The notes under the pieces: model-generated | What the model was told of the DNA's origin: nothing | Databases searched by the model: none | What the model saw: the letters and a program-made list of their open reading frames with translations, nothing else | In this document: positions 41,722 to 56,502 of the stretch, piece after piece | How positions within the stretch are numbered: the first letter of the stretch is position 1 | How the letters are laid out: each line of letters opens with the position of its first letter | NCBI GenBank assembly: GCA_965215505.1 | Contig: OZ244065.1 | Coordinates: forward strand, 288,001 to 352,000 | Length of the DNA: 64,000 bases | Reading direction: 5' to 3' | Source of the DNA: Capsulimonadaceae bacterium | Lineage (GTDB): Bacteria; Armatimonadota; Armatimonadia; Armatimonadales; Capsulimonadaceae | Translations under genes and position numbers: made by a program

Positions 41722-41735
41722 CGGGGAGCGCTCCG

Positions 41736-42248
41736 TCAGCGGATACGCACCTCACAGCGGGCCGAGACGGACCCCATCGGCGGCAGATCACCCAGGAACG
41801 TCCAGCGGAGCGTCGTGTACCGCGAGGCCGGGGCCGGCTCGTCGTCGGTGCTGCCGTCAGGGTGGGTCACCCGGACCGTCGGCTTCTCGGCGAAGGTCTT
41901 GCCGCCGTCGAGGCTTGCGGTCAGCCGGGCGTCGCCGGAGGCCGACGCCGACGACGCTTGGTATTCCATGCCGCGCGGGACCGGCTGGGTGAGGACGAAG
42001 CCCCTGATGGGCCGTGCGAGGTGGCTGCTCGCGGTCACGGTGTACCGGAGGGCGTCGCCGGGCAGGACGACGGCCTTGCCCGAGCCGAGCGGGAGCCATT
42101 TTGGCTGTCCGTCCTGACCGGGCGGGGCCTTCTTCTCGACGGTCAGCAGCACGGCGACCGGTGCCGGGCCGGCGGGGGCCGCCCAGGCCGCAGGCAGGCA
42201 GAGCGCGGCGGCGAGCAGCATCAGTATGGAGTTGAAGCGGGTTTTCAT
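41736..42248 (-). CDS. Small secreted DUF11-type protein (paralog of 53493-54005)
   Basis: Signal peptide; 'PGDALRYTV', 'QPVPRGMEY', 'SLDGGKTF', 'YTTLRWTF'. Confidence 0.8.
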   Translation of the reverse strand: MKTRFNSILMLLAAALCLPAAWAAPAGPAPVAVLLTVEKKAPPGQDGQPKWLPLGSGKAVVLPGDALRYTVTASSHLARPIRGFVLTQPVPRGMEYQASSASASGDARLTASLDGGKTFAEKPTVRVTHPDGSTDDEPAPASRYTTLRWTFLGDLPPMGSVSARCEVRIR

Positions 42249-42303
42249 CGTGTTCCTTGTGTTCCTTCTTTTGTGTTCCTTCGCCGCTGACCCGTGGGCG
42301 CGG

Positions 42304-44697
42304 TCAGTTCAGCTTCCGACGGATCGTAAAGGTGCCGGAAGCGCCCGGCGCGATCGCGCCGGTGATGGTGTCCAGATACTTGGTGACATCCGTCGCCGCC
42401 GTCGTCCCGGTCTGGTCCGAGCAGCTCGTGGTCGCCGGGTTCCCGGAGAAGAACGTGACCACGCCGCCCGAGTCCACCGCCCGGCCCACGACATTGCTAG
42501 TGTCAATGATGCCGTTGCCGTCGTTGTCGAGCGCCCAGTTCGCGCCGCCGCCGATCCCGCTCCGCACCAGGACGACGTTGCTGGCGTTGAGCTGCTTGCA
42601 GTTCGTCCCGCCCGAGGACGAGATGTTCTGGTAGGTCACCTGATATTCCAGGAACCGGCCCGGCAGCAGGTTCGCCGGGGTCAATGTCTGCGTGTAGGCC
42701 TGGATGACGCTCGTGCCGTCGGTGCCCAGGATGCGCCCCAGCACGGCCAGCTTGAGGAAGCCCGTATACACCCGGTCCACGGTGTTCTCCGTGCCCTCGC
42801 CGCTATCATAGGTGCCGCTCCCGTTGCTGTCAATGAAGGCCTGGAGGACGACCGGGTAGCCCTTGCCGGTGTCGGTCGAGAGGGCGGTCGCGTTCGGGAG
42901 CTGCATGGAGGCGGTGATGTTGACCGTGCCGCCGGCGGCGATGTTCGTGGCCGAGATCGCCGTGCCGGACGTCTTGGTCCAGGCGGTGCCGTTGTAGGTG
43001 TAGAGCGGCGCATTGCCGCCGTAGGTCAGCGTGACGGTCGTCCCGCTCGGGAGGTCGGCCGCCTGGCCGCCGGGCAGGACGCTCGGGGGCAGGGGGACGA
43101 CGTAGATGGTGTTCGTGATCGTGGTCGAGCCGGTGTTCTTGATCGTGTTCGTGAAGGACACGGCGGCCGGGTTGATCGCATTCCCCGCCGTCAGCCCGGA
43201 CGGCACCGGGGACGAGAGGTTCGTGTAGTCGTCGTTGGCGTCGGTGGGGCCGACCGCCTGGGGTGAGCCGCTCGGCCCGATCGCGAGCGCGCCCGCCGGC
43301 TGGACCGTGTAGACGTTATCCTGCCCGCCCGCCCCTGAACCGGTGTTGTTGTTTGAAGCGTCCGTCCCGTCGCCTGCGGGGTTGGCGACGCCGCTCCGGG
43401 GCGTGTTGGACCCGTAGGAGCCGTCGTCGTTGAAGTTCGCCGGGTTGGCATCCCCGGACTCGTCGTAGCACAGCGCGCCGGTGACGTCGCCCGCCGAGTT
43501 GCCGAGGAGCTGCGCGAGGGCCGCGACCGTGGTCGGGGCGGTCAGGCTGACGCCGCTCGTGAGTACCGTGAAGGCGAACCCGGTCAGGCTGGTGCCCTTG
43601 GTGATGGGACCGGCGGCGACGAAACCGAGGCGCGTCGTGTTCGACAGCGGTGAGGGCGCTGTGGAAACCCAGGCCGCCGCGCTCGGCAGCGTGGTGGTGG
43701 CGCTGGTGGTATAAATCGCTGTCCAGCCGGAAGGGGCGGCGGGGGTGCCGGTAAGCACGGCCCCGGTGGGCACCGCGACCGAGATCAGGATGCGGCTGAC
43801 GGTGCTGCCGTCGAGGCTGATGCTGGTCGCGGTCAGGTCTGCGGGGACATACTCGGGCAGGGCGTTCGTCCACGCGCTCGAGTTGACGTTCAGGCCGAGG
43901 CTGTAGGCGAGGGTGTCATGCTGAGAGTCCACGCCCTGGGTCAGCGCCCCGTGCGTGAGCAGGACGGCGGCGAAGGCCTGCGGCTGCGAGCCGGCCGTCG
44001 TGGACTCGGTGGCGCTGGCCTCGCGGTTGCCGTTGACCGGCGATCCGGGGTCGGATGTATAGCACTTGCCCGCGCCGCCGGTCGGCGCGGTGGGGTAGGC
44101 CTGGTTCTGCGTTCCGGCGCTGTTGTCGTTCGGGCTGGTGTTACCGAGCAGCACGGCGATGGCGGCACCGGGGGCGGCGCTCGGAGTGACCGTGGCCGAG
44201 ACGCGCACCTGCACCGTGCCGCCCTCGGCGACGGTCGGCGTGGTAGCGCTGGCCCCCGAGACGGTGGTGTAGCTGGTGCCGCCGTTGGTGCTATACTGGA
44301 CGGAGGTCAGCGCGGCCGGGCCGGTGATGGCCACGGTGCCGGGGATGACGAACTGGTCGGTGTCGTTGCCGACGTTCGTGATCACATAGTCGTAGTACAG
44401 GACGTGGCCGGGCAGGATGTTGGCACCGCCCGTGTGGTCGGTGACGGCGGACCCCGTCAGCGTCATGCCCGCCACCTCGGCCACGGTCACGGTGACCGAG
44501 TTGGAAGGCGCGTTGACGGTCTGGCCGCTGTTGTTCGGGTCCACATAGCTCGCCGAAGCCGAGTCGGTGATGGGCGTGCCGGCCGCCGTCTGGGCGCGTG
44601 CGCCAGGCAGGGGCAGCAGCATCGCTGCCAGCAGCAGCGTGGGGAGGAGACCGCACAGCAGCCGTTCAGGGGGCCAAGTTTTTATCTTCGTGACCAC
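42304..44697 (-). CDS. Secreted beta-rich DUF11-type repeat protein (putative filament shaft, paralog of 54015-56396)
   Basis: Signal peptide; colinear similarity with 54015-56396 over the whole length. Confidence 0.82.
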   Translation of the reverse strand: MVTKIKTWPPERLLCGLLPTLLLAAMLLPLPGARAQTAAGTPITDSASASYVDPNNSGQTVNAPSNSVTVTVAEVAGMTLTGSAVTDHTGGANILPGHVLYYDYVITNVGNDTDQFVIPGTVAITGPAALTSVQYSTNGGTSYTTVSGASATTPTVAEGGTVQVRVSATVTPSAAPGAAIAVLLGNTSPNDNSAGTQNQAYPTAPTGGAGKCYTSDPGSPVNGNREASATESTTAGSQPQAFAAVLLTHGALTQGVDSQHDTLAYSLGLNVNSSAWTNALPEYVPADLTATSISLDGSTVSRILISVAVPTGAVLTGTPAAPSGWTAIYTTSATTTLPSAAAWVSTAPSPLSNTTRLGFVAAGPITKGTSLTGFAFTVLTSGVSLTAPTTVAALAQLLGNSAGDVTGALCYDESGDANPANFNDDGSYGSNTPRSGVANPAGDGTDASNNNTGSGAGGQDNVYTVQPAGALAIGPSGSPQAVGPTDANDDYTNLSSPVPSGLTAGNAINPAAVSFTNTIKNTGSTTITNTIYVVPLPPSVLPGGQAADLPSGTTVTLTYGGNAPLYTYNGTAWTKTSGTAISATNIAAGGTVNITASMQLPNATALSTDTGKGYPVVLQAFIDSNGSGTYDSGEGTENTVDRVYTGFLKLAVLGRILGTDGTSVIQAYTQTLTPANLLPGRFLEYQVTYQNISSSGGTNCKQLNASNVVLVRSGIGGGANWALDNDGNGIIDTSNVVGRAVDSGGVVTFFSGNPATTSCSDQTGTTAATDVTKYLDTITGAIAPGASGTFTIRRKLN

Positions 44698-44867: not shown

Positions 44868-46001
44868 ATGACGGAAACACCACTGCGGGTCGCCATCGTC
44901 GGGACCGCAAAACGCTCGGACTACCTCTACGGGCCGCTCTTGAGAGCCATGACCGGCGTCGAGCTGGTCGCCGTCTGGGGCCGGAGTGAGGGTTCTGCCC
45001 AGAAGCTCGGCGCGAGTCTGGGGGTGCCCGCCTACACGGACCTTGCCCGGCTGATTGCCGAGACCGGGGCCGAGATCGGCGTCGTCTCGGTCTCCTATGG
45101 CGCGAACGGGTCGGTCGGGCTGCTGGCCGTCGAACACGGCCTGCACGTTTTATTGGAGACGCCCATCGCCCACGAGCTGGCCGAGGCCGACGCCATCATC
45201 GCCGCCGCCGGTCTGCGCGGCCTGAAGGTGGAGGTGGCCGAGCAGTTCCACCGCCGCCCCCTGGAGGCGATCAAGCTGAAGCTGATCGCGTCGGGCCTGT
45301 TCGGGCGCGTCCACACCTCGTTCAGCGACTTCGCCGGCCACGGCTATCACGGGGTCAGCGTCATGCGCTCCTACCTCGGCTTCGACGCCAAACCGGTGCA
45401 GGTGACGGGGGCGGTCCGCTCCTACCCGCTGGCCTCGCACCGGCCTTACCTGGGCACATCGGACCGGGCGCGGGACGAGACGCAGGAACACGCGACGGTG
45501 GAGTTTGAAGACGGGCGGCTGGGGCTGTTCCACTGGACGAGCGTCGGCTACGACTCGCCGCTGCGCTGGTGGCGCTCCTCGCGGTTCCTGGCGGAGCGCG
45601 GCATGGGGGTGACGACGGGGATGTACCCGGACGTCCAGGAGTATCTGACCCTGCTGACGCCGGACGGGCAGGCCGCCCAGCCGGTCATGCTGGAGCGCCG
45701 CCTGGAGCGGGTGGACGGCGGGGCGCTGACGGCGATGGTGGCGCACACGGGCGACGCCGCCCTGCCCACGGTCATTTGGGAGAACCCGTTCAAGCCTGCC
45801 GTCCAGGGCCACGGCCCGCAGTGGCACGACGACGAGATCGGGGTGGCGGGGTGTCTCCAGAGCCTGATAGACGCCGTGCGGAACGACGCCGCGCCGAGCT
45901 ACGGGCCGCAGCAGGCGCGTCTGGACCAGGAGATCGTGCTGGCCCTGCATCGGTCCTCGAATGAGGGGGGCCGCCCGGTGCGGCTGGCGTCTTCCTTCTG
46001 A
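44868..46001 (+). CDS. Gfo/Idh/MocA-family oxidoreductase
   Basis: 'LRVAIVGT', 'GLHVLLETPIA'. Confidence 0.85.
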   Translation: MTETPLRVAIVGTAKRSDYLYGPLLRAMTGVELVAVWGRSEGSAQKLGASLGVPAYTDLARLIAETGAEIGVVSVSYGANGSVGLLAVEHGLHVLLETPIAHELAEADAIIAAAGLRGLKVEVAEQFHRRPLEAIKLKLIASGLFGRVHTSFSDFAGHGYHGVSVMRSYLGFDAKPVQVTGAVRSYPLASHRPYLGTSDRARDETQEHATVEFEDGRLGLFHWTSVGYDSPLRWWRSSRFLAERGMGVTTGMYPDVQEYLTLLTPDGQAAQPVMLERRLERVDGGALTAMVAHTGDAALPTVIWENPFKPAVQGHGPQWHDDEIGVAGCLQSLIDAVRNDAAPSYGPQQARLDQEIVLALHRSSNEGGRPVRLASSF

Positions 46002-46012
46002 GACGGACAGGA

Positions 46013-46157
46013 GACGAGTGATTGAAATCACTCGCTGCCCTCGGATTTGTCCAGGGGACAAGGGAACGGGATGATGCCGAACGTCCCTCGTCCCCGTCCT
46101 GCCCTCTTCTGTCCCCTGGACAGGTCCGCGCGTAGCGAGTGATTTTAATCACTCGTC
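46013..46157. repeat. ~145-bp nested-palindromic element, copy 3
   Basis: Same termini (one substitution) and TGTCCAGGGGACA/TGTCCCCTGGACA pair. Confidence 0.9.
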
Positions 46158-46193
46158 CTACCGGCGTGTGACATGAGCTACTTCACCCGGACA

Positions 46194-48437
46194 TCATTTC
46201 ACCCGGACGCGGAACCGGAGGAACCCGTAAGAGCCGGTCGGCGTGCCCGGCCCAGTGGCGCTGGGCAGGGTCGCCGGGGCGGGGGCGAGGGAGACGGCCA
46301 CGACGCCGCTCAGGTTGGGCTGGCCGCCGGGGTTCGCGGCGGCGGGGACCGCCGCGCCCGGCGCGTAGAACTGGCCTCGGTCGGCGTCGGCGACGTCGGA
46401 CAGGTAGTTGGTCGGGGCGGTCGGCAGGCTGGATGCGCTCAGGGCCAGGGCGATGCCCGAGTCCGCGCCGCCCGTGCCCCCGTCGGTCGGCGTCAGCCCG
46501 TCATAGGCCGTCGCTTCAAAGGCGGTGTCGGCGGGCAGGACGTCGGCCAGCAGGATGTTGGTGCCGGGGCCGCTGGTGTCCAGGAAGTAGATGGTGTATT
46601 CCAGCTCATCGCCGGGCTTGATGTTGGCGACGCTGCGGGTCCCGCGCAGGTAGGTGGCGGCCGGGGCGGGCCAGTAGGGGCTGTTGTCGTCGGCCGTGCC
46701 GGGGTCGTCGTCGAACCCGGTCGTGTTCGTCCCGTTGACGGCGGTGATGCGCTTGACCAGCAGGAGGACGGGCGGCCCCTGGACGTTGAGCGTGGACGAG
46801 GCGGCGGGGCTGGGGAAATAGGTCCACAGGTCCAGCCCCTTGGTGTCCCCGAACGAGCCGGTGTTGGGGACATTGGTGTTGCCGTTGTTCCCCGACTGCC
46901 CATAGGCGCGCTGGGCCGAGGAAAGATCGAAGCCGTTTATGGGGTCTGCGGCGATGACAGAGGGCGGGGCGATGCCGCCGAGCGGCTGCCCGACGTCGGC
47001 GGCGCTGCCGGAGCCGCCGACGCTGCTCTTGGTGACGTTGTAGCCGCCCAATGTCCGGTAGCCCCGGTCATCGTAGAATCCGACCGTGTAGGAGTGACCG
47101 CCCGCATTGGCGTGGTTGAGCAAAGAAATGTTCGGCCCGCCGGAGACGTTGTTCTCGGCGTCCAGCAGCGGGAAGTGGTACTCCCCGGCGTGGATCGTGG
47201 CCTGAACGCCGTAGCCGGTGCCGACGGGGAAGTTCGCCCCGCTGTTGTCCTTGCCGTCCCACGTCACGGTGTTCGACCCAGCCGCGCGCACCCCGCGCAG
47301 GCGGCGGTTCGCGGGCAGCGTCGGGTCGAAGTTCACGTTGTCGCGGCTGATCACGATGTCATAGACCGCGCTGAGGTTGCTGGTGAAGCTGAACGTGCCG
47401 CCCGTCCCGAGGCGGCTGTTGTTGCCGCCCGCCGTGCCGGAGAAGCCCAGGCCGCTGATGGTCGGGTCCTGGGGGATGGTCGCGATACCCGCCGCCATCA
47501 GGGTCTCGTTGGCGGCCGGGTGGAAGAAGAGCGGGTAGGTGGGCAGGGCCAGGTGACAGCCGCCCTCGATACTGGAGAGCTGGCCGTCCGCGCCCAGTAC
47601 GTCCTGGTAGAGCGGCGAGACGCCGTCACTGTCGTAGAAGCCGACCTGGTTGCCGTAGATGATGAAGCCGTTCGGGTCCAGCCCGTTCAAAGCCATCTGG
47701 TAGCGGTAGCCGTCGGTCGTCACGGCATAGAGGTCGCTGTAGAGGCAGCGCCCGTTGCCGCCGGTGAACAGGGCGAGGTAGTAGGCAAAAACGCGCCCGG
47801 TGATGTCGGTCGTGGAGGAGGCCGAGGCGCGCACGGCGACGTCCCAGGCGGCCACGCTGCTGCCCTGCGAGCTGTCGAAGTCGTTGGTGGAACCAAGGGT
47901 GATGTCGCCATAGGGGGCACCGGTGCCGGCCGTGTTCCCGCCCGCCGGGCCGTAGAAGACGACCTCGTAGATGCCGTCTTCGGGGGCGACGTAGGAGGCC
48001 GGCGCGTAGCCCGACGTGTTGCCGGTCCCGTCCTGACTCTTCGGCCCGGCAAGCTCCAAAGCGCGGCTGGTGATCTGACCCTTGCCGGCCTGCGAACTCG
48101 CCTGGAAGTCCGGCGATGCGGGCACGTTCTCGCTGCCGACCGCGCCGGTGACGCGGCCCGGCCGGTAGATCAGGATGTCGCCGCTGCCGACCCCGACGGC
48201 CGACGAGGCGACCAGGATGTATTCGCCGGTGTGGGCGTAGACGTGCAGCAGGGTCCGGCGCAGCAGCAGGCTCCCGTAGGTGTCCGTGCGCCATTCCAGG
48301 TTGGCGCGGGCTGCGCCGGGCCGCCCGTCATCGGAGGCGGGGTAGAGGTCGCGGCTGCCCGACGCCCCGGCCCGCAGGGGCAGCATGCAGGCCAGGAGAG
48401 CCAGCGCGAGCGCCCCCAAAGTTCTTCGCTGTGTCAT
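46194..48437 (-). CDS. Secreted protein with FlgD-Ig-like segment and C-terminal truncated DUF11-type domain (putative tip adhesin)
   Basis: Signal peptide from MTQRRT; 'GSNTVTWDGKDNSG'; terminal 'LLLVKRI...PGDELEYTIYF...LADVLP...LRFRVRVK'. Confidence 0.8.
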   Translation of the reverse strand: MTQRRTLGALALALLACMLPLRAGASGSRDLYPASDDGRPGAARANLEWRTDTYGSLLLRRTLLHVYAHTGEYILVASSAVGVGSGDILIYRPGRVTGAVGSENVPASPDFQASSQAGKGQITSRALELAGPKSQDGTGNTSGYAPASYVAPEDGIYEVVFYGPAGGNTAGTGAPYGDITLGSTNDFDSSQGSSVAAWDVAVRASASSTTDITGRVFAYYLALFTGGNGRCLYSDLYAVTTDGYRYQMALNGLDPNGFIIYGNQVGFYDSDGVSPLYQDVLGADGQLSSIEGGCHLALPTYPLFFHPAANETLMAAGIATIPQDPTISGLGFSGTAGGNNSRLGTGGTFSFTSNLSAVYDIVISRDNVNFDPTLPANRRLRGVRAAGSNTVTWDGKDNSGANFPVGTGYGVQATIHAGEYHFPLLDAENNVSGGPNISLLNHANAGGHSYTVGFYDDRGYRTLGGYNVTKSSVGGSGSAADVGQPLGGIAPPSVIAADPINGFDLSSAQRAYGQSGNNGNTNVPNTGSFGDTKGLDLWTYFPSPAASSTLNVQGPPVLLLVKRITAVNGTNTTGFDDDPGTADDNSPYWPAPAATYLRGTRSVANIKPGDELEYTIYFLDTSGPGTNILLADVLPADTAFEATAYDGLTPTDGGTGGADSGIALALSASSLPTAPTNYLSDVADADRGQFYAPGAAVPAAANPGGQPNLSGVVAVSLAPAPATLPSATGPGTPTGSYGFLRFRVRVK

Positions 48438-48466
48438 CGTGTGTCCTCGAAGGGTCCCCGCCGTGG

Positions 48467-51400
48467 CTAATCGCCGGCCCGCCCCGGCGTGCTGGATGTC
48501 GTAACAGCAGACTGCGTCGGCCCGGCGGCGTTCCCCGTCGGGGCGGGGGTGAAGCCGGCCGGGACGGGGCGGCCCTTGTCCGCCAGTGCGCCGCGCTCCA
48601 GCCCGAAGCCGTTGAAGAGCTGGTTCACCTTGGCGGTGAAGCCCAGATAGATGCCGCCCGCCGAGCGCGCCCCGCTGAAGTCGCGGTCGCCGACGCGCCC
48701 GAAGCTGTACCCCAGGCTCAGGCGCAGGTCGGGCGTCGCGAAGTAGCCCGTCTCCACCACCAGGCCCCGGCTGCTGTAGCCCGCCGTCGTCTGGCCGATC
48801 CAGCGCAGGTCGCCCACGAGGTCCATGTCCGACCGGAAGCGGTAGGTCGCCCGCATCTGGGCCAGGTCGATCCGGCTGACGCCCACATAGTCGCCGGCCA
48901 GGAAGGAGACGCTGTCGCGCCGGGCCAGCTTGCCGTAGAACTCCCACTGCCATTCGGGGGCGTAGATGCCCTCGACCGCGAACACTCCGTCGCGCGAGCC
49001 CGCCCCGCTGCCGACCAGGATGGTGTCCGGGATCGTCGCCGGGTTGCGCCGGTAGTCGTAGCGGAGCAGCAGGTTGACGTTGTCGCGGGCTGGGTCGCGG
49101 TAGGCCAGGCCCATCCGCAGCGTCACCGAGCGGCCCAATGACTCCAGCAGCTGGTTCGCGGCGTCCGACTCCTGGTAAGCACCCAGGGCGGTCAGGGCCG
49201 GCCCGATCTTGCCGGCCAGCGCCCCGGTGATGACCGTGTTCTGTCCCCCGGACGAGTCGCGCGTCTCATAGCGCGCGCTGGCTTTGAAGTCGCGCGAGCG
49301 CGTATACTCCAGGCCCGCGCTCAGGCCGCCGCCGCTGCCGACGCCGAGGCCCGAGGCGCTCTGGCCGACGGCGTAGGGCTGCGCGAACCGGTCCCCCGCC
49401 CCGGTGCGCCCGAAGAACGCGCCGGTGACGTGTTCATAGCCCAGGCTGAGGCCCAGACCGGGGACCAGAATCCAGCGCCTGCCCAGGCCGAGCGACTGCT
49501 CCAGGGCGAAGCCGTTTGCGCCCCCGGTGAGCGCGAACCGCTCCGACATCTGCGTCCCGTCCCCGCCCTTGTGTTCGGCGACCGTCTCCAGGCTGGTGAC
49601 GGCGTGGCCTTTGTACTGGCCGCGCCCGTAGACCTGCTCGGTGAGTTTGACGTCCACGCCGGGCTTCGCCTTCCAGTCCGCGCCCACCGAGGTCCGGTCC
49701 GTGTAGACCGGGTCCGTGCCCGCCGACAGCGTGGTGTCGTTCTGGGCCAGCAGGGAGACGTTTTTGGTGACCGGCGCGGTCAGCCGCGTCTCCACCTGGT
49801 CCGAACTGCCCGAAAGGCCCGACCCGGCGATGCGGTCGGTGCGGCTCCGGCTGGTCAGGGCGACGGACACCTCGGCCCGGCGCACCCGCTGCTGCACCCC
49901 GACCGAGTAGGTCTGAAGGCTGTTGTCCACGGGCGTCCCGGCGGCGGGCGTCGTGCCGGGGTCCAGGACGCCGATCAGGGCGGGGTCGGGCTGGGGCGCG
50001 AGGCCCTTGTTGTCCTCGTGGTCGGCCTGCACCCGCAGGCGCGTCGTCGGCGAGAGCGCGGCCGAGACCTCGCCGCCGTACCGGGTCTGGCCCGGCACGA
50101 ACGAGGTGGTGGCGTCATTGGAAAAGCCGGTCCCGGTGGAGTGCAGGTAGGCCGAGACCGAAACGGCCCGCGCCGGGGAGGCCTCGGCGGACAGGCGGTA
50201 GGCGGTCCCGGCGACGTTCCCCAGGCCCGCCGCGCTGTCGCGGCTGTCAGAGCGCGCGATCTCGGCGATCAGCCGGCCACGCCCGCCGAGCAGCGGCAGG
50301 GAGGCGTCCGCCCCGTACAGGTCGAACCCCTGCAAGCCCTGGTTCTGGCGCAGGAAGGTGACGCCGAAGAGGCCGCCCGCCTGACGCCCCGCGCCGCCCG
50401 CCAGTCCGTACTGCATCCGGCCCCCGTAGACATTGGTGCCCGCCCCGCCGGTCTCGTACTGGTAGGTGGTGACGATCCTTCGGACCAGGGCCTGCCCGTC
50501 CGGGCCGACGTCGGTCCGCAGGACGGGCTGGTGGAAGAGCAGTGTCCCCCGGTCGTAGTCGATCTCATAGTCCACGCCGCGCTGGGGGGCGGCGCGCTCC
50601 AGGACGGTTCCGGGCCGGTTGATGTCTTCCAGCTCGAAGAAGACGCTCTCGCTGCCGTAGACCAGGGGCCGGTGGGACAGGAAGTACAGCCCGCTCGTCC
50701 CGTCGGGCGCGACGGTGTCGCGCTGGAAGCCCTGGACGTCGTCGCCGTAGAATCCGGTCGCCTGCAAGCCGCCCGCCTGGTAGTTCGCCTTCAGGGCGTG
50801 GAAGGTGCGCGTGATGGCCGTGAACTCCTGCGACCGGCCCGCGAACTCGGCCGTCCCGTAGTCGCCCCACAGGATGTAGGTCTGGTCGCGTTCCAGCCGC
50901 AGGGCCAAGTTGTCGCGGGACTGGGCCAGGGCGAAGGCGGTGGAGCTGTCGCCGTAGACGGCATAGGGCCGCTCCTGCGCCTGCGTCTGCGTGTCCCGGC
51001 CCAGGCTGCTCGGCCCCGCAGCCGTCTGGTTCAGAGCGTGTTCGCTGTCGTAAGCGCCGAGGAACAGATAGTCGCCAACCTTGCCGGTCGCGAAGACGGA
51101 CGTGCGCCCGTGGAGCTTGGAACCATCGCTGACGTCGGGGCTGATGAAGTCTTGCAGGGGCCGGTCGTAGTCGGAGCGGCGGCTGCCGAGACGGAAATCC
51201 ACCACGCCGGTCGCGAGGGAGGGGCGCAGGTGCGTGGCGAACTCGACGGACGCGAACGCCTCCAGGTCGCCGCTGGCGGCCCGGACGCGGACGGTCTGCG
51301 CCTGCACCCCGGCCCGCAGGGTGGCGCGGAATCGGCCCCCCACGGTCCGGACCTGGAAGCCGGGCTGGTCCGGGTCGGCGTCCTCGCCCACCCACTCGCC

Positions 51401-51910
51401 CGCCCCGGCCGTCAGCGTGACCAGGCCGTCGTGGTGGGAGGGCCGGCCCCGCGCGTCCAGCAAAGCCCCGGTGAAGGCCAGCGTGGAGCGGCCGTCGGCG
51501 GGGAGGCGGCTGCCCAGGGCGCGCAATGTGAGCTGCCGAGGCGCGGACTGCACCTCGACGGTGCGCTCGGCCCGCGCGCCGCCCGGCCCGGTTTCGGCGA
51601 GCAGGGTGTTCGTGCCTTCCTTCAGGACGACGCCGTACCAGGTCTGCGTGACTGTCTTGGCCGCGCCGTCGGTCTCGGTCCGGCCGATGAGGGTGGGGCT
51701 GATCAAGGTCCCGTTGACCCGCAGCGTGACGGCCGCCCCGGCCGGGAAGCGGAGGACGACGGCGACGGCGGGGCTGTCCAGCGCGCCGTCCCCGCCGGGG
51801 GAGAGGATTGCCAGCCCGGATGACTGGGGCACGGTCGTCTGCCCGCAAGCAGGTCGGGGAACTGCGACCACAGCCGCAGATGCCAGCATGAGTGCGATCA
51901 GGTGCTTCAT
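48467..51910 (-). CDS. Large putative outer-membrane beta-barrel protein with N-terminal Ig-like domains
   Basis: Signal peptide; invasin-like 'LPADGRSTL'; several hundred residues of alternating amphipathic strands ending 'LRLSLGYSFG...GGIYLGFTAK'. Confidence 0.75.
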   Translation of the reverse strand: MKHLIALMLASAAVVAVPRPACGQTTVPQSSGLAILSPGGDGALDSPAVAVVLRFPAGAAVTLRVNGTLISPTLIGRTETDGAAKTVTQTWYGVVLKEGTNTLLAETGPGGARAERTVEVQSAPRQLTLRALGSRLPADGRSTLAFTGALLDARGRPSHHDGLVTLTAGAGEWVGEDADPDQPGFQVRTVGGRFRATLRAGVQAQTVRVRAASGDLEAFASVEFATHLRPSLATGVVDFRLGSRRSDYDRPLQDFISPDVSDGSKLHGRTSVFATGKVGDYLFLGAYDSEHALNQTAAGPSSLGRDTQTQAQERPYAVYGDSSTAFALAQSRDNLALRLERDQTYILWGDYGTAEFAGRSQEFTAITRTFHALKANYQAGGLQATGFYGDDVQGFQRDTVAPDGTSGLYFLSHRPLVYGSESVFFELEDINRPGTVLERAAPQRGVDYEIDYDRGTLLFHQPVLRTDVGPDGQALVRRIVTTYQYETGGAGTNVYGGRMQYGLAGGAGRQAGGLFGVTFLRQNQGLQGFDLYGADASLPLLGGRGRLIAEIARSDSRDSAAGLGNVAGTAYRLSAEASPARAVSVSAYLHSTGTGFSNDATTSFVPGQTRYGGEVSAALSPTTRLRVQADHEDNKGLAPQPDPALIGVLDPGTTPAAGTPVDNSLQTYSVGVQQRVRRAEVSVALTSRSRTDRIAGSGLSGSSDQVETRLTAPVTKNVSLLAQNDTTLSAGTDPVYTDRTSVGADWKAKPGVDVKLTEQVYGRGQYKGHAVTSLETVAEHKGGDGTQMSERFALTGGANGFALEQSLGLGRRWILVPGLGLSLGYEHVTGAFFGRTGAGDRFAQPYAVGQSASGLGVGSGGGLSAGLEYTRSRDFKASARYETRDSSGGQNTVITGALAGKIGPALTALGAYQESDAANQLLESLGRSVTLRMGLAYRDPARDNVNLLLRYDYRRNPATIPDTILVGSGAGSRDGVFAVEGIYAPEWQWEFYGKLARRDSVSFLAGDYVGVSRIDLAQMRATYRFRSDMDLVGDLRWIGQTTAGYSSRGLVVETGYFATPDLRLSLGYSFGRVGDRDFSGARSAGGIYLGFTAKVNQLFNGFGLERGALADKGRPVPAGFTPAPTGNAAGPTQSAVTTSSTPGRAGD

Positions 51911-53490
51911 CGCGCGCCTTCTTTCGGCATCGGCATGGACATCGGCGCGGGGGCGTCAGCGGGGACGACGCCGAAGTTCAGCCGGACCATGCCGCCCGGC
52001 TGGACGTTGACCAAGCGGGACTGGCTGTTGCGCTCTTTGAAGCGGCGGTTGCGGGCGATGACGTAGCCGGGAACGCTCTGCATGTCCAGGGCGGCGGTGT
52101 GGTAGCCGGCCGTGACCGAGGCCAGCGAGAACAGGCCGTTCGCGTCGGCGACGATGCGCGTCGAGTCGTCCAGGATGACGACGGCATTGGGGACGCCCGG
52201 CTCGCCGGCCTGCTGCTCGCCGTCGCGGCTGCGGTCCACCCAGACGCGCCCCAGGAGGGTGCCGGTGTCGGTCAATAATCCCTGGCGCACTTGCAGGGTG
52301 AAGACGGCGGGGCCGTCGGAGATCGGAGTAGTCATCGTGGTCCCATGGGAGACGGTCAAGACGTCGGCGGTGACGACGGCGGAGTTTTTGCCGTCGCCGC
52401 GCAGGGCGTCCGGCGTGAGCTGGACGGCGTAAGCCAGGGTGAGCGCCTGGCCCGGCGGGAGCAGGAAGCCGCCCGCGTCAAGCACGGTCGTCGGCCCGCT
52501 CCTTGATACTGCGATGGGGACGCTCTTGCCCGACGCCGACGCCCGCACCGAGTCGGGGCGCAGGTCGAAGCCGAGCGGCGGCGTGTCTAATACCTGGATG
52601 TGTTCCAGCGGCAGGGTCGTCGGGTTCTGGACGAGGATGCGGTAGATGACGGTGTCGCCCGGCTCCGCCGTGCTGCGGTCCCCGCTCTTGCTGATCTGAA
52701 GCTCGTGCGCCTGGCAGTCGCTCAGGGTCAGGTTCAGCCCGGCCAGCCCCGGCCCGGTCGGCGCGGCCATCAGCATGGCGTGAGGCCCGGTGAGCGCGCC
52801 GCCCATGCCGTTCACCGGCTCGCCGTCGAGCGAGGCGGCCGTGTAGGCGATGCTCGTGCCGTCCCGCGCCCCCAGGGTGATGCGGATGCGCCGCTGGCGG
52901 TAGGCCGAGCCGGGGGGCGGGGTGAGGACCAGGATGTAGACGCGGCCCGCGTCGAGCTGGCCCCGGCTCGGGTCCAGCATCAGGCTGAAGCGGCCCTTGT
53001 CCGTGTCGGACAGCGCGAACGGGTTGGCGTTAAGGGTGTTAGGCGGGACGCCCGCAGGCACCCCCGCCTCAACGGACAGGGCGGTCGCGGTCAGCGCGAC
53101 GGCCCCCTTGACCTCGGCCCCCGTCGGGTCGGCGGGGTCCGGCTGGTACAGGCCGATGGTGAAGCCCGAGTAGGAGGGCAGGGGGGCACCGTCGCAGCCC
53201 ATCACCGTGCCGCGCGGGTCCACGAGCAGGGAGCGGGTGGTCATCCCGCCCATCGCCATGCCCCCCTTGCCGTCGCTGTAGGAGAAGGAAGTCTGGTTGG
53301 AGATCTGGCCCCGGTCCTGCGCCCGCGCGGCGGGCACAAGGACTGCCGGCAGGAGCGATCCCGCCAGGAGCAGGCCGGCCGCCCGGCGCCCTGATTGTCG
53401 CGCGTAGTTTCGCATCGTCAGCCTTCGCATCGTCAGCCTTCGCATCGTCAGCCTTCGCATCGTCAGCCTTCGCATCGTCAGCCTTCGCAT
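51907..53490 (-). CDS. Secreted protein with a complete DUF11 domain and SdrD-B-like domain (putative base/anchor subunit); true start is one of six ATGs
   Basis: 'LQISKSGDRSTAEPGDTVIYRI...VLDTPP...GKNSAVV'; 'GRVWVDRSRDGEQQAGEPGVPN'. Confidence 0.82.
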   Translation of the reverse strand: MRRLTMRRLTMRRLTMRRLTMRRLTMRNYARQSGRRAAGLLLAGSLLPAVLVPAARAQDRGQISNQTSFSYSDGKGGMAMGGMTTRSLLVDPRGTVMGCDGAPLPSYSGFTIGLYQPDPADPTGAEVKGAVALTATALSVEAGVPAGVPPNTLNANPFALSDTDKGRFSLMLDPSRGQLDAGRVYILVLTPPPGSAYRQRRIRITLGARDGTSIAYTAASLDGEPVNGMGGALTGPHAMLMAAPTGPGLAGLNLTLSDCQAHELQISKSGDRSTAEPGDTVIYRILVQNPTTLPLEHIQVLDTPPLGFDLRPDSVRASASGKSVPIAVSRSGPTTVLDAGGFLLPPGQALTLAYAVQLTPDALRGDGKNSAVVTADVLTVSHGTTMTTPISDGPAVFTLQVRQGLLTDTGTLLGRVWVDRSRDGEQQAGEPGVPNAVVILDDSTRIVADANGLFSLASVTAGYHTAALDMQSVPGYVIARNRRFKERNSQSRLVNVQPGGMVRLNFGVVPADAPAPMSMPMPKEGAR

Positions 53491-53497
53491 CGTCAGC
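53409..53497. repeat. Tandem repeat, 15-bp unit TTCGCATCGTCAGCC x ~5.9, spanning a stop/start junction
   Basis: Seen directly; encodes MRRLT repeats. Confidence 0.97.
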
Positions 53498-54005
53498 GGA
53501 CCCGCACCTGGTAGGTCACGGCCAGGGTCGTCTTCGCCGCCAGGGCGGGGAAGCGCCAGCGCAGGGCGGCGTAGGACTCGGGCGGGGCGGGGACAGTCCG
53601 GGCCGCGCCGTCCGCGCCGAGGACGGTCCGGGTGGGCTGTTCGGAGAACCGGTGCCCGTCCAGGCTGTAGGTGACCTGGGCAGGCCCCGCCGCGTCCCCT
53701 TCCGCCGAGCGGGAGACGTAGACGGTGCCGGCCGGGACCGGCTCGGTGACGACCAGGCCGGTGACGGGGGCCGCGCCCGTGTTCTCCGCCTGCATCCGGT
53801 AGCGCAGGAGGTCGCCCGGCTCGACCGGTCCGGTGTTCGCGCCGGCCACCGAGAGGCGCAGCAGGACGGGCGCGCTTTTCGGGGCGGGCGCGGCCCTCGG
53901 GCCGGCCGGCGCGGGGGCGGCGTGGCCGACGGACCAGGCACCCAGGGCGGCCAGTGGGGCGACAAGGACGGCCAGAAGGCCGAGGCGTGTATGCTGCTTT
54001 ATCAT
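53493..54005 (-). CDS. Small secreted DUF11-type protein
   Basis: Signal peptide; 'VEPGDLLRY...NTG...VVTEPVPAGTVYV...YSLDG...LRWRF...YQVRVR'. Confidence 0.82.
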   Translation of the reverse strand: MIKQHTRLGLLAVLVAPLAALGAWSVGHAAPAPAGPRAAPAPKSAPVLLRLSVAGANTGPVEPGDLLRYRMQAENTGAAPVTGLVVTEPVPAGTVYVSRSAEGDAAGPAQVTYSLDGHRFSEQPTRTVLGADGAARTVPAPPESYAALRWRFPALAAKTTLAVTYQVRVR

Positions 54006-54014
54006 GGGAACCTA

Positions 54015-56396
54015 CTAGTTGATCCTGCGCCGGAAGGTGAAGGTGCGGGGCGTGCCTGGGGCGAGGCTGCCCGAGATGGTGTCCACATACTTGGTGACGT
54101 CCGTGGCCGCCGTCGTCCCCGACCGGTCCGTGCCGGGGGCGGGCGGGCCGCCGTTGTAGAAGGTGATGACGCCGCCGCCCGAGTCTACGGCGGAGCCGAG
54201 GACGTTGCTGGTGTCCAGGATGCCGTTGCCGTCCTGGTCCAGTGCCCAGTTGTTGCCGCCCGCCGTGCCGTCCTCGATGATGACGGCGCTGCCGGCGTTC
54301 AGGACCGTACTCCCCGTCCCGGCGGGCGCGGAGGAGACGTTGGTGTAGGTGATCTTGTAGTCAATATAGCGGCCCGGCTGGATGTTGGCCGAGGACGGCC
54401 CGGCGCTGTAGTCCTGGATGACCGTCGTGCCGTCGGCGGCCACGATGCGGGCGCTCTTGGTCACCTGGAGGAAGCCGGTATACAGCCGGTCTATGGTCAT
54501 GTTACTCGGCTCCCCTGGGTCCGGCACGCCGTTGCCGTTGGCGTCCACGTTCGCCAGGATGGGGACCGGGAAGCCTTTGCTGGTGTCCGTCGAGAGCGGC
54601 GTGTTGGCGGGGAGCTGGACCGTCGCCGTGTAGCTGAGGGTCGCACCCGCCGCCATGCTCGGGATAGAGATCGCCGTCCCGCTCGCCAAAGCCCAGTGCG
54701 CGCCGTCATAGCCGTAGACGGCGCTCGCCCCGCCGTAGGCCAGCGTGAGGTGCGTCCCGACGGGCAGGTCGGCGGCGGCCCCGCCGGGGATGGCGGCGGG
54801 CGGCTGCGGCAGGAGGAGCGTGTTGCCGCTGATCGGGGCCGCGCCGGGGTTTTGCAAAGTGTTGGTGAACGTGACGGCGGCGGGCGTGATCAGGGTGCCC
54901 GGCGGGGTTCCGGGGGGGACCGGGGTGGACAGATTCGAGAAGTCGTCGTTGCTGCCGTTCGGCCCGGTCGCGCCGGGCTGGCCGTTCGGCCCGTTCATCA
55001 CGACGCCCGCGGGCGAGACGGTGTAGACGTTGTCCTCGCCGCCCGGCCCGGTCCCGGTGTCGTTGTTGCCCGCGTCCGTCCCGTCCGTGCCGGGGGCGGC
55101 GACGCCGTTCGTCGGCGTGCTTCCGCCCCGGCTGCCGTCGTCGTTGAAGAGGCTCGGCGACTGGTCACCGGACTCGTCATACACAAGCGCGTTCGTGGCG
55201 TCGCCCGAGGTCTGCCCGAAGAGCTGGGCGATGTTGTTCACCGGGGTGGGGGCGGTCGCGCTGGCCCCGGTGGTCGTGACCGTGTAGGCGAAGCCGGTCA
55301 GCGTCGTCCCCCGGGTGACCGGGCCGGGGGCGATGAAGCCGACGCGGGTGACGGTGGTCAGGTCGGTCGGCGCGGCCGTCGTCCAGGCGGCGCTCTCGGC
55401 GACCGTGCTGGTCGGCGTGGTCGTATAAACGACGGTCCAGCCGGAGGGGGCGGTTGGCGTGCCGGTCAGGGTCGTCCCGGCCGGGATGGCGTTCGCGATC
55501 AGGACGCTGGGCGCGGACGCGCCGTTGACGGTCAGGGGGGCGGCGGCGAGGTCGGCGGCGGCCAGGGCGTGGGAGGCACCCGCGCCGGTCGGGACGCTGT
55601 TGTTGACGTTCAGGCCCAGGCCGTAGGTGAGGGTGTCGGCGGCGGGGACCGCGCCCTGGGCGAAGCCGGTCCGGGTCAGCAGCAGGACGGCCAACGCCTG
55701 CGGCTGCGTCCCGACGGTGCCGTTCTGGAAGGCGCTGGCCTCGCGCAGCCCGTTCTGGGCCGTGGTGGAATTCGTGTGGACGTCGGCGGCAGACGGGGTG
55801 GGGTCGGCGATGTTCTGGGTGTCGGTGTTGTTGTCGTTCGCGCCCGTGTCGCCGAGCAGCACCTTGATGACGTCGCCGGTCGCCGCCGAAGCCGCAACGG
55901 TGATGGGGACGCGCACCAGGACGGTTCCGTTCGCCGGGATGGCGGACGTGGCGACCCCGCCCGCCGGGATGTTGGTGAAGTGCGCGCCCCCGTCGGTACT
56001 ATACTGGAGCGCGCCCGCCGTGCCGGGGCCGGTGACGGTCGCCGCGCCGGGCAGGGTGATGGCGTTCGCGCCGTTGCCGATGTTGGTGACGGTGAAGTCG
56101 TAGTTCACCGTGTCGCCGGGCAGAATGTTGTTCGCGTGGCCGGGCGTCGTGTCGGTGACGGCCGCGCCGCCGGCCGAGAGGCCGGCGACCTCGGCGACCG
56201 TCACCGAGACGGTGTTGGAGGTCGCGTTGAGGGCCTGGCCCGCGTTGTTGGGGTCGTTGTAGGTGGCGGACGCGGTGTTGCTGATCGCCGTGCCCGCCGC
56301 CGTGCCCGCCGCCCGCGCCGGGCCGCCGTCCGTCAGGGTGCCTTCAAAGACCCCCCCGAACAGGACCGTCGCGAGGAGCAATCTGCGTGTCTGCAT
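54015..56396 (-). CDS. Secreted beta-rich DUF11-type repeat protein (putative major filament subunit)
   Basis: Signal peptide ending ARA; mature N-terminus 'AGTAAGTAISNTASATY...SNTVSVTVAEV'; C-terminus 'LQVTKS...PGRYIDYKITYTN...IIEDG...LAPG...TFTFRRRIN'. Confidence 0.85.
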   Translation of the reverse strand: MQTRRLLLATVLFGGVFEGTLTDGGPARAAGTAAGTAISNTASATYNDPNNAGQALNATSNTVSVTVAEVAGLSAGGAAVTDTTPGHANNILPGDTVNYDFTVTNIGNGANAITLPGAATVTGPGTAGALQYSTDGGAHFTNIPAGGVATSAIPANGTVLVRVPITVAASAATGDVIKVLLGDTGANDNNTDTQNIADPTPSAADVHTNSTTAQNGLREASAFQNGTVGTQPQALAVLLLTRTGFAQGAVPAADTLTYGLGLNVNNSVPTGAGASHALAAADLAAAPLTVNGASAPSVLIANAIPAGTTLTGTPTAPSGWTVVYTTTPTSTVAESAAWTTAAPTDLTTVTRVGFIAPGPVTRGTTLTGFAYTVTTTGASATAPTPVNNIAQLFGQTSGDATNALVYDESGDQSPSLFNDDGSRGGSTPTNGVAAPGTDGTDAGNNDTGTGPGGEDNVYTVSPAGVVMNGPNGQPGATGPNGSNDDFSNLSTPVPPGTPPGTLITPAAVTFTNTLQNPGAAPISGNTLLLPQPPAAIPGGAAADLPVGTHLTLAYGGASAVYGYDGAHWALASGTAISIPSMAAGATLSYTATVQLPANTPLSTDTSKGFPVPILANVDANGNGVPDPGEPSNMTIDRLYTGFLQVTKSARIVAADGTTVIQDYSAGPSSANIQPGRYIDYKITYTNVSSAPAGTGSTVLNAGSAVIIEDGTAGGNNWALDQDGNGILDTSNVLGSAVDSGGGVITFYNGGPPAPGTDRSGTTAATDVTKYVDTISGSLAPGTPRTFTFRRRIN

Positions 56397-56502
56397 GTCG
56401 TGCCTTCCGTTGCCGAATGGGAAAATGGCTGGGTGCTTGTGGCGTAGTCCGGGAGGATGACATCATGCCGCCCTGCTCCTGTCAAAACTACTGCTGGCAT
56501 AT

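Follow-up and report, generated by a model that had tools for sequence, protein, structure and literature searches.

The window analysed here, a stretch of 64,000 nucleotides from a Capsulimonadaceae bacterium (Armatimonadota; contig OZ244065.1), carries a set of five genes (A793, B170, C527, D1147 and E758) and a second, partial set (A2, B2 and X1379). The first gene, A793, encodes a protein of 793 amino acids (aa) whose C-terminal immunoglobulin (Ig)-like domain stops before its last two strands and whose N-terminus holds a two-strand beta-hairpin that would take their place. We present A793 as the candidate shaft subunit of a pilus-like surface fibre. On the whole, it is highly probable that the hairpin complements the C-terminal domain, called here the acceptor; that the pairing takes place between chains rather than within one chain is likely; and the full statement, between-chain complementation together with an isopeptide bond between K647 and N40, is favoured with moderate confidence. 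Copies of A793 probably join head to tail, and their joints are perhaps closed by a self-made Lys-Asn bond.

The steps would be as follows. After export by the Sec pathway and removal of the signal peptide, mature A793 would begin with the hairpin (about residues 36-68). The hairpin of one subunit would enter the C-terminal Ig-like domain (residues 641-793) of the previous subunit and provide the last two strands wanting there, and this insertion would put N40, on the penultimate strand, in the core near E708 and near K647 of the first strand. A CnaA-type Lys-Asn isopeptide bond would then form without an enzyme and lock the joint. The residues concerned (K647, E708/D709, N40 and the C-terminal TFTFRRRIN) had been named in an earlier note made from the sequence alone, and a check of the sequence finds every one of them in its place.

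The two ends of A793

In the A793 sequence, the motif LQVTKS occupies residues 643-648 (with K647) and VIIEDG residues 705-710 (with E708 and D709), while the chain ends ...PRTFTFRRRIN, TFTFRRRIN being residues 785-793. At the other end, AGTAISNTASATY corresponds to residues 34-46, near the N-terminus, and contains N40. The whole protein was modelled with AlphaFold2 (AF2) on an alignment of 47 sequences, giving a predicted local distance difference test score (pLDDT) of 82.1 and a predicted template-modelling score (pTM) of 0.50. The model is all-beta and consists of the hairpin, an N-terminal domain, the DUF7925 domain, a third domain and the C-terminal domain, with low-confidence linkers at about 190-235 and about 400-455. 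The acceptor domain is an all-beta, Ig-like sandwich with pLDDT of 84-93 across most of residues 641-793, in which K647 lies within the strand 643-652 and E708 within the strand 704-709. The signal-peptide layout is repeated in the A793 orthologues (for example PVLA/EGT), and in A793 the sequence points to cleavage after ARA29; an AXA-site heuristic was too permissive to inform on the cleavage site. A Foldseek search with the whole A793 model found PrgB Ig-like domains and antigen I/II C-terminal domains, with E from 5e-12 to 3e-7. Classification of the single domains by Foldseek was abandoned as uninformative, the hits being generic Ig arrays with TM<=0.24.

We then consider conservation in two sets, the first consisting of 80 open reading frames (ORFs), that of the window and those of 79 loci, and the second of 228 family proteins of 700-1000 aa. 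Among the 80 ORFs, K647 is present in all, N40 in 79 with one gap, and position 708 is E in 78 and D in 2; D709 is found in 72/80. The hairpin columns I38, T41, A44, Y46, N57, T59, S60, N61 and V63 are each kept in 79/80, and A42 in 78/80. The acceptor end is conserved likewise (F786 80/80, R790 80/80, N793 78/80), and all of the 47 aligned sequences have Y680 and W717. When N-terminal donor-like strands are taken together, position 40 is N in 171 of 176, the rest being D twice, S twice and a spurious G once. At positions 40, 647 and 708, the second set reads N/K/E in 209 proteins and N/K/D in 12, so that 221 of the 228 have N, K and an acid. Four of the remaining seven are artefacts, namely three gaps at N40 in truncated or permuted proteins and one permuted protein that is misaligned; the true exceptions are P0027 (S/Q/E), P0040 (D/V/R) and P0212 (S/K/E). 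K647 is replaced in two of these three proteins, all of which have N40 replaced, and in no member of the group of 221 with N, K and the acid. The three residues singled out by the note are thus near-invariant in both sets.

The family also provides a comparison of its own. DUF7925 goes back to a survey published in 2025 on intramolecular isopeptide bonds, which set up the family from the Nostoc protein Q8YS00 with the predicted triad K264/D326/N415 (PMC12617251); no other paper naming DUF7925 was found in the literature searched. A793 has DUF7925 (PF25546) as its sole Pfam hit, at residues 236-415 with 183.4 bits against a cut-off of 26.5. The internal K/D/N triad of this domain is kept in 161 of the 228 relatives, and A793 itself lacks it, reading L240/N302/N388. 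Since the terminal triad is kept in 221 of the same 228, the terminal joint is more tightly constrained than the mid-domain bond. In most close Armatimonadota-type relatives, the Lys position of the DUF7925 triad is occupied by Leu.

The end of the chain is equally informative. The end motif was located in 160 family proteins, of which 140 terminate exactly there and 16 more carry tails of 1-23 residues, mostly rich in Pro, Gly, Thr and Asn. In the other four (P0153, P0168, P0243 and P0247), a regular-expression search finds that the donor motif resumes after exactly 7 residues, and the same continuation was recognized by eye in P0147. In these five fused relatives, ..F.F.R.VN runs on into ..I.N.A.ATY.. 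within one chain; in P0243 only the hairpin is kept after the C-terminal domain, followed by cadherin and RTX domains. Because the five carry domain and motif in one chain, the hairpin (about 36-68) corresponds to the missing last two strands of the acceptor, and, judged by the sequences, it is structurally part of the C-terminal domain. The predicted mature N-terminus of A793 lies 8 residues ahead of I38, compared with the spacer of 7 in the fused proteins, and therefore the natural break falls about at the point where the signal peptide is removed. The earlier note had placed a missing Asn strand at the N-terminus; the location is borne out, and the single strand has to be replaced by a two-strand hairpin (37-47 and 55-66). 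As a further observation, P0147, P0153, P0168, P0247 and P0243 are circularly permuted or embedded in giant multi-domain proteins, the permuted ones having third domain, acceptor, hairpin and N-terminal domain amid Calx-beta-like, beta-helix, cadherin and RTX parts, and some of the five end at contig ends.

Residues 625-793 and 29-195 were docked as two chains, with 47 alignment rows each, in three runs. The interface score ipSAE is 0.75, 0.81 and 0.81, whereas the highest score among 3 controls is 0.00; in its calibration, the ipSAE mark was reached by 58 of the 80 complexes of solved structure and by 2 of the 110 mismatched pairs, figures that are approximate since the alignment is self-made. 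The partner has pLDDT of 80-84, and the runs have at least 96% of contacts in common. Hairpin strand 1 (42-46) runs antiparallel to 704-708, with the pairs 707:43, 706:44, 705:45 and 704:46, and strand 2 (58-63) runs parallel to the first strand of the acceptor, with the pairs 645:58, 647:60 and 647:63. E708 contacts A42, N40 contacts Y680, N715 and W717, and K647 contacts S60 and V63; V645 and K647 together contact hairpin residues 44, 58, 60 and 63. The interface comprises residues 30-33, 36-50, 52, 56, 58-68 and 70 on the hairpin side, and on the acceptor side a first part (639, 641-649, 665-667, 669-675, 678, 680, 682, 684, 697 and 699-710) and a second part (713-717, 721-722, 724, 726, 728-729, 774, 777, 786 and 792-793). 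A dimer model had been named in the note as a check on its proposal, and the docking, which places the hairpin in the C-terminal domain, agrees with that proposal. With strand 2 parallel to the first strand, the next N-terminal domain would exit at the far pole and the chain would extend linearly, a geometry read from the contact list of the model.

Covalent or not, between chains or within one

Several observations weigh against our reading or against parts of it, and they are taken here together with the alternatives that they would support. The most probable of these alternatives is a fibre made by hairpin complementation alone, without a covalent bond, the triad being then a buried cluster of hydrogen bonds or salt bridges that fixes the register. 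The pair K647-N40 is absent from the 25 least-error pairs listed for the docked model, and in the register found (46 with 643, 44 with 645) A42 faces K647, with N40 one step beyond. In the paralogue A2, hairpin and truncated end are both retained, while the triad positions read D45, V652 and R712, with neither K nor E, and P0212 has S at position 40 with K and E kept; both suggest that assembly may not need the bond. To these are added B170, of whose 79 copies at least 90% have no acid, and the N35A oligomer of the Clostridium perfringens protein BsaA, which is reported to survive sodium dodecyl sulphate without the bond (PMC11580942). However, CnaA-type bonds have as their signature a Lys, an acid and an Asn that lie buried on the first, central and penultimate strands (PMC12617251). 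Furthermore, position 708 shows no other change than E to D as long as N and K are kept, the loss of K is confined to proteins that have also lost N, and the terminal triad is kept more strictly than the internal one. A purely non-covalent fibre is thus unlikely in our view.

The second alternative is that the hairpin folds onto the C-terminal domain of its own chain, in the manner of a permuted CnaA-like domain, giving a ring with the bond optional and no polymer. The fused relatives are equally compatible with such an intramolecular closure, circularly permuted relatives exist, as adjacent termini would allow, and the two low-confidence linkers could permit the loop. Coevolution and docking, moreover, are blind to the difference between pairing within a chain and between chains, and the docking model may have rebuilt an Ig fold from two pieces by its memory of intact folds. 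The geometry tells against a ring, since with strand 2 parallel to the first strand the N-terminal and third domains exit at opposite poles, with linkers of about 6 and about 3 residues. The neighbouring proteins do so too: C527 has a donor without an open acceptor, while E758, X1379 and B170 have open acceptors without a donor. Completion of these is possible only by another chain, which favours pairing between chains. For the hairpin, the monomer model reaches a pLDDT of only 56-72, a weak confidence that in itself counts against our reading; the whole partner has 80-84 in the docked model, and this difference weakly favours between-chain pairing. Closure within one chain is thereby left with a small probability.

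That there is no complementation at all, with the N-terminal strands belonging to the N-terminal domain, the C-terminal Ig domain complete and the motifs kept for export or outer-membrane recognition, would agree with the ..F.F.R..N end being conserved like a sorting signal and with the lack of a DUF11 hidden Markov model match, and is nevertheless very improbable, as P0243 has the hairpin right after the C-terminal domain with no N-terminal domain following, the docking separates so clearly from its controls, and the N-terminal Ig-like domain contributes only residue 108 to the docked interface.

The family assignment of the acceptor is a further point to be weighed on the unfavourable side. 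No DUF11 or other family match was found for the acceptor domain in Pfam (E<=0.1) and NCBIfam, the fused relatives P0243, P0147 and P0153 are likewise without a DUF11 match in Pfam, and hhalign against the intact DUF11 domain of C527 aligned the PGDxxxY strand only (24 columns, probability 18.9%). A mapping of K, E and N onto DUF11 by profile was dropped, the hhalign result being too weak for it. The note had labelled the C-terminal domain as DUF11, and this label has to be given up; the acceptor domain is CnaA-like by topology rather than a member of Pfam DUF11. It has Lys on the first strand, directed to the core (K647, 80/80), and an acid on the central strand (E708, E or D in 80/80), and no Asn of the penultimate strand exists within residues 641-793. 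Such an Asn is supplied by N40 in the docked model, and by the same chain in the five fused relatives.

The gene cluster and a second gene set

The gene order is A793, B170, C527, D1147 and usually E758, and it is the same in loci of Armatimonadota and Cyanobacteria. Best hits in that order after A793 are found for B170 in 79/79 loci, for C527 in 77/79, for D1147 in 74/79 and for E758 in 55/79. The sequence GGAAGG stands a few bases 5' of the A793 ATG. When 8000 candidates were scored, 700 relatives of A793 had E<=0.001, and 498 had the same among cluster representatives; a relative is encoded in 501 of 599 stretches scanned. The nearest named relatives belong to Armatimonadota (Capsulimonadaceae and Armatimonadales) with 59-85% identity, and the remaining ones are mostly from Cyanobacteria with 43-53% identity. 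Their names in the source records are only 'hypothetical', 'DUF7925' or 'beta strand repeat-containing'. The family scores above the cut-off in 2 of 151 genomes of Armatimonadota, including the window's own genome. Being rare in its own phylum and common in Cyanobacteria, the gene cluster shows a patchy distribution that suggests horizontal transfer. The G+C content of the cluster region (46000-56400) is 72%, and that of the rest of the window about 66-70%. The features of the window are collected in Table 1.

Table 1. Positions of the A793 parts and of the related genes in the window
Feature	Positions	Strand	Basis or description
A793, proposed shaft subunit gene	54015-56396	-	793-aa ORF; Pfam DUF7925 family
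Predicted signal peptide, residues 1-29	56310-56396	-	MQTRR, hydrophobic run, ARA/AGT; pLDDT <50 for residues 1-30
Proposed donor hairpin, residues 30-70	56187-56309	-	strand 37-47 (ISN40TASATY), turn DPNN, strand 55-66 (NATSNTVSVTV)
N40 codon, proposed isopeptide Asn	56277-56279	-	conservation and docked model
N-terminal Ig-like domain, residues 73-195	55812-56180	-	GDxxNYxxxxTNxG motif; strands, pLDDT 82-93
DUF7925 domain, residues 236-415	55152-55691	-	Pfam; own triad positions read L240/N302/N388
Third beta domain, residues 455-640	54477-55034	-	strands and pLDDT; conserved end TIDRLYTGF
Acceptor (C-terminal) domain, residues 641-793	54018-54476	-	stops directly after strand RTFTFRRRIN
K647 codon, proposed isopeptide Lys, first strand	54456-54458	-	conservation and docked model
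E708 codon, proposed catalytic acid	54273-54275	-	conservation and docked model
B170, 170-aa secreted single DUF11-type domain, acceptor only	53493-54005	-	ends after F strand ..TYQVRVR
C527, 527 aa, donor only; proposed terminator or anchor	51907-53490	-	strand QISN65QTSFSYSD, DUF11, SdrD_B-like domain, conserved tail
D1147, proposed outer-membrane barrel, export or assembly pore	48467-51910	-	two N-terminal Ig-like domains, then about 40 long antiparallel strands
E758, 747 aa from M at 48437, acceptor only; proposed tip adhesin	46194-48437	-	variable N-terminal part and acceptor domain
Second, partial gene set (A2, B2, X1379)	37582-44697	-	same strand as first cluster
A2, shaft paralogue, 797 aa	42304-44697	-	52% identity; triad positions D45, V652, R712
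B2, second 170-aa protein	41736-42248	-	second gene set
X1379, 1379 aa	37582-41721	-	two malectin, one Laminin_G_3, four fn3, then E758-like acceptor end

In C527, the donor strand stands directly after the signal peptide (N65 75/75, Y71 75/75, and A in 72/75 at the A67 column in the C527 family alignment), and a relaxed donor motif is matched by 75 of 78 C527 ORFs. Its DUF11 domain has ISKS at 266, VLDTP at 300 and GKNSA at 367, that is K268, D302 and N369, each present in 75/75. C527 has no open acceptor because this DUF11 domain is complete. The note had used this intact K...D...N domain as its reference; the residues are as it said, and the gene, which it took for the neighbouring one, is actually the next but one. 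In the tail of C527 (51907-52100, reverse strand), ..ERNSQSRLV.L.PGG..R.NF.V.P follows the SdrD_B-like domain in 22/22 orthologues listed, and this tail is a candidate docking site for the barrel or the cell wall. Across the B170 stop and the C527 start lies a perfect 15-bp tandem repeat (53409-53497, 5.9 copies, 100% matches), whose unit contains one TGA and one ATG and reads in frame as MRRLT x5 where the C527 ORF begins; the repeat may make the C527 start variable, or else the n-region of the signal peptide longer or shorter.

B170 gives a DUF11 hit of 30.1 bits and a TIGR01451 hit of 38.8 bits. Its end ..Y.V.VR is found in 20/22 orthologues listed, and no donor motif is present. The acid position is Q in the great majority of the 79 copies mentioned above (at least 90%), and the copy in the window has E there and is without the Lys. 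As an acceptor without a conserved acid, B170 would bind the donor hairpin reversibly, and at a guess it might serve as a cap or as a chaperone or holder of the free hairpin. In E758, the acceptor has K562 (LLLVKRIT) and D632 (LADVLP), each conserved in at least 90% of 46 ORFs, and it ends YGFLRFRVRVK without the Asn strand; no N-terminal donor motif is found, and the N-terminal part is divergent between loci.

D1147 is the best-conserved member of the cluster, with 45-54% identity to the cyanobacterial copies, and this conservation together with its position points to a possible export or assembly pore. Its AF2 model has pLDDT of 67.7 and pTM of 0.46. Foldseek hits are large outer-membrane barrels that point to no single family, namely TonB receptors, LptD, MtrB, PapC (TMq 0.19), SlpA and SprA, all with TMq<=0.25 and TMt up to 0.28, and the ESM Atlas gives leads only, with names of the 'outer membrane protein / TonB-dependent receptor' type. 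Counting against such a pore, D1147 matches no Pfam barrel family, has no PDB sequence match (E<=1) and has no detectable usher relation.

In the second gene set, the acceptor end of X1379 has the K, has N in place of the acid, and finishes YGFVRYQVTIN. The lectin modules of X1379 are carried on an acceptor-only end, which therefore fits a tip adhesin. This set has neither a donor-only protein nor a barrel gene of its own, and may use those of the first cluster. A2, as a paralogue without the triad, provides an internal control for the contribution of the proposed bond.

With these partners, the fibre would run from a tip with an acceptor only (E758 or the lectin-bearing X1379), through the shaft copies of A793, to C527, which as donor only would form the fibre end or anchor; growth would be at the base, with the polarity of chaperone-usher pili, and the D1147 barrel would serve for export or assembly of the fibre at the outer membrane. 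Taken as a whole, this would be a new pilus class of double-membraned bacteria, present in many Cyanobacteria and few Armatimonadota, in which tip, shaft and anchor are joined by split CnaA-like hairpin complementation with Lys-Asn-locked joints, exported through a non-usher barrel of about 40 strands and comprising several natural Tag/Catcher pairs (A793+A793, A793+E758 and C527+A793); we consider the chances for and against this whole picture to be about equal. If true, it would give a covalent fibre in double-membraned bacteria without sortase, by means of an isopeptide Ig domain split between the subunit ends, and thus a kind of surface fibre not yet described in such bacteria. It would also be a source of natural, probably orthogonal peptide-protein ligation pairs. 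At the same time, it would offer a function for an uncharacterised and strictly ordered five-gene set that occurs widely among filamentous cyanobacteria, Nostoc, Fischerella and Leptolyngbya among them.

Comparison with known systems

In the literature searched, which did not cover the supplementary tables of PMC12617251, no description of the cluster or of a natural split CnaA-type domain was found. A solved structure for comparison is that of the CLIPPER/DUF11 domain, in which Lys715 is bonded to Asn806 and the last of the nine strands (strand 9, Cys818-821) follows this Asn (PMC12617251; PDB 9IFR). Likeness to A793 is seen in the Lys of the first strand, the acid, the Asn of the penultimate strand followed by a final strand, and the aromatics near the bond (Y680 and W717 in A793), aromatic caps over such isopeptide bonds being reported in the same paper (PMC12617251). 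An intact example lies two genes from A793, in C527 with K268/D302/N369. The difference is that the triad is all in one chain in these domains, and that the A793 acceptor is not Pfam DUF11. The survey itself scanned monomer models for intramolecular bonds, and the 'intermolecular' passages listed from it contain no split domain (PMC12617251). In the archaeal threads of Saci_0406, donor-strand complementation is combined with a proposed covalent inter-subunit isopeptide bond (PMC9715654). This bond, however, is one between the alpha-amine at the N-terminus (Asp24) and Asn57 in subunit n+2; it has no Lys/acid triad and belongs to a one-membrane archaeon (PMC9715654). Auto-crosslinking spore fibres have also been reported (PMC13111695).

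The sortase-assembled pili of Gram-positive bacteria resemble the proposed fibre in having a covalent shaft of Ig-like CnaA/CnaB domains, the covalency of A793 being our proposal. They differ in the joint, where sortase joins the Thr of LPXTG to a pilin Lys, whereas A793 ends RRRIN without LPXTG. The five cluster proteins match no sortase family (Pfam, NCBIfam), the rest of the genome not having been searched for sortase. With the chaperone-usher pili (type 1 and P pili), the proposed fibre would have in common an incomplete Ig domain filled up by an N-terminal extension from the following subunit, an acceptor-only tip, a donor-only terminator, an outer-membrane barrel and an operon. In those pili, by contrast, the joints are non-covalent and made by a single strand, and the D1147 barrel is larger, with about 40 strands in the model. 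Usher PF00577 and the PapD-like chaperone PF00345 gave no hit on the five cluster proteins in Pfam and NCBIfam.

SpyTag/SpyCatcher and SnoopTag/SnoopCatcher are engineered splits of CnaB2 of FbaB and of RrgA D4. As proposed for A793, an isopeptide Ig domain is split there into an Asp/Asn strand and a Lys/Glu remainder, which reconstitute and bond without an enzyme. Those splits are man-made, whereas that of A793 would have arisen in nature, the tag lying at one end of the chain and the catcher at the other, with a polymer as the result.

The closest likeness in mechanism is BsaA, a protein of the TasA family, for which donor-strand 'exchange and lock' with an Asn-Lys bond has been reported; the donor is N35, the acceptor residues are K74 and E56, and the alanine mutants lose oligomers (PMC11580942). 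The mechanism proposed in the earlier note is therefore less novel than it might seem, as donor-strand exchange with an Asn-Lys bond and a Glu is already reported for BsaA (PMC11580942). Both have an N-terminal donor strand with an Asn that goes into the sheet of the next subunit, a Lys and a Glu in the acceptor, a self-made bond and an extracellular fibre, the insertion, bond and fibre of A793 being proposals. The folds are unrelated, A793 has no TasA/camelysin Pfam hit, a TasA-type family is matched by none of the cluster proteins (Pfam, NCBIfam), and the resemblance is in mechanism only. The host of BsaA is a monoderm with the peptidase SipW, and BsaA is a single-domain protein without an outer-membrane barrel, whereas in A793 a CnaA-like domain would be completed by a hairpin of two strands, the subunit has four domains, and tip and terminator are encoded by separate genes. 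If the reading favoured here is true, the exchange-and-lock principle reported for BsaA would be extended to another fold and another type of cell envelope.

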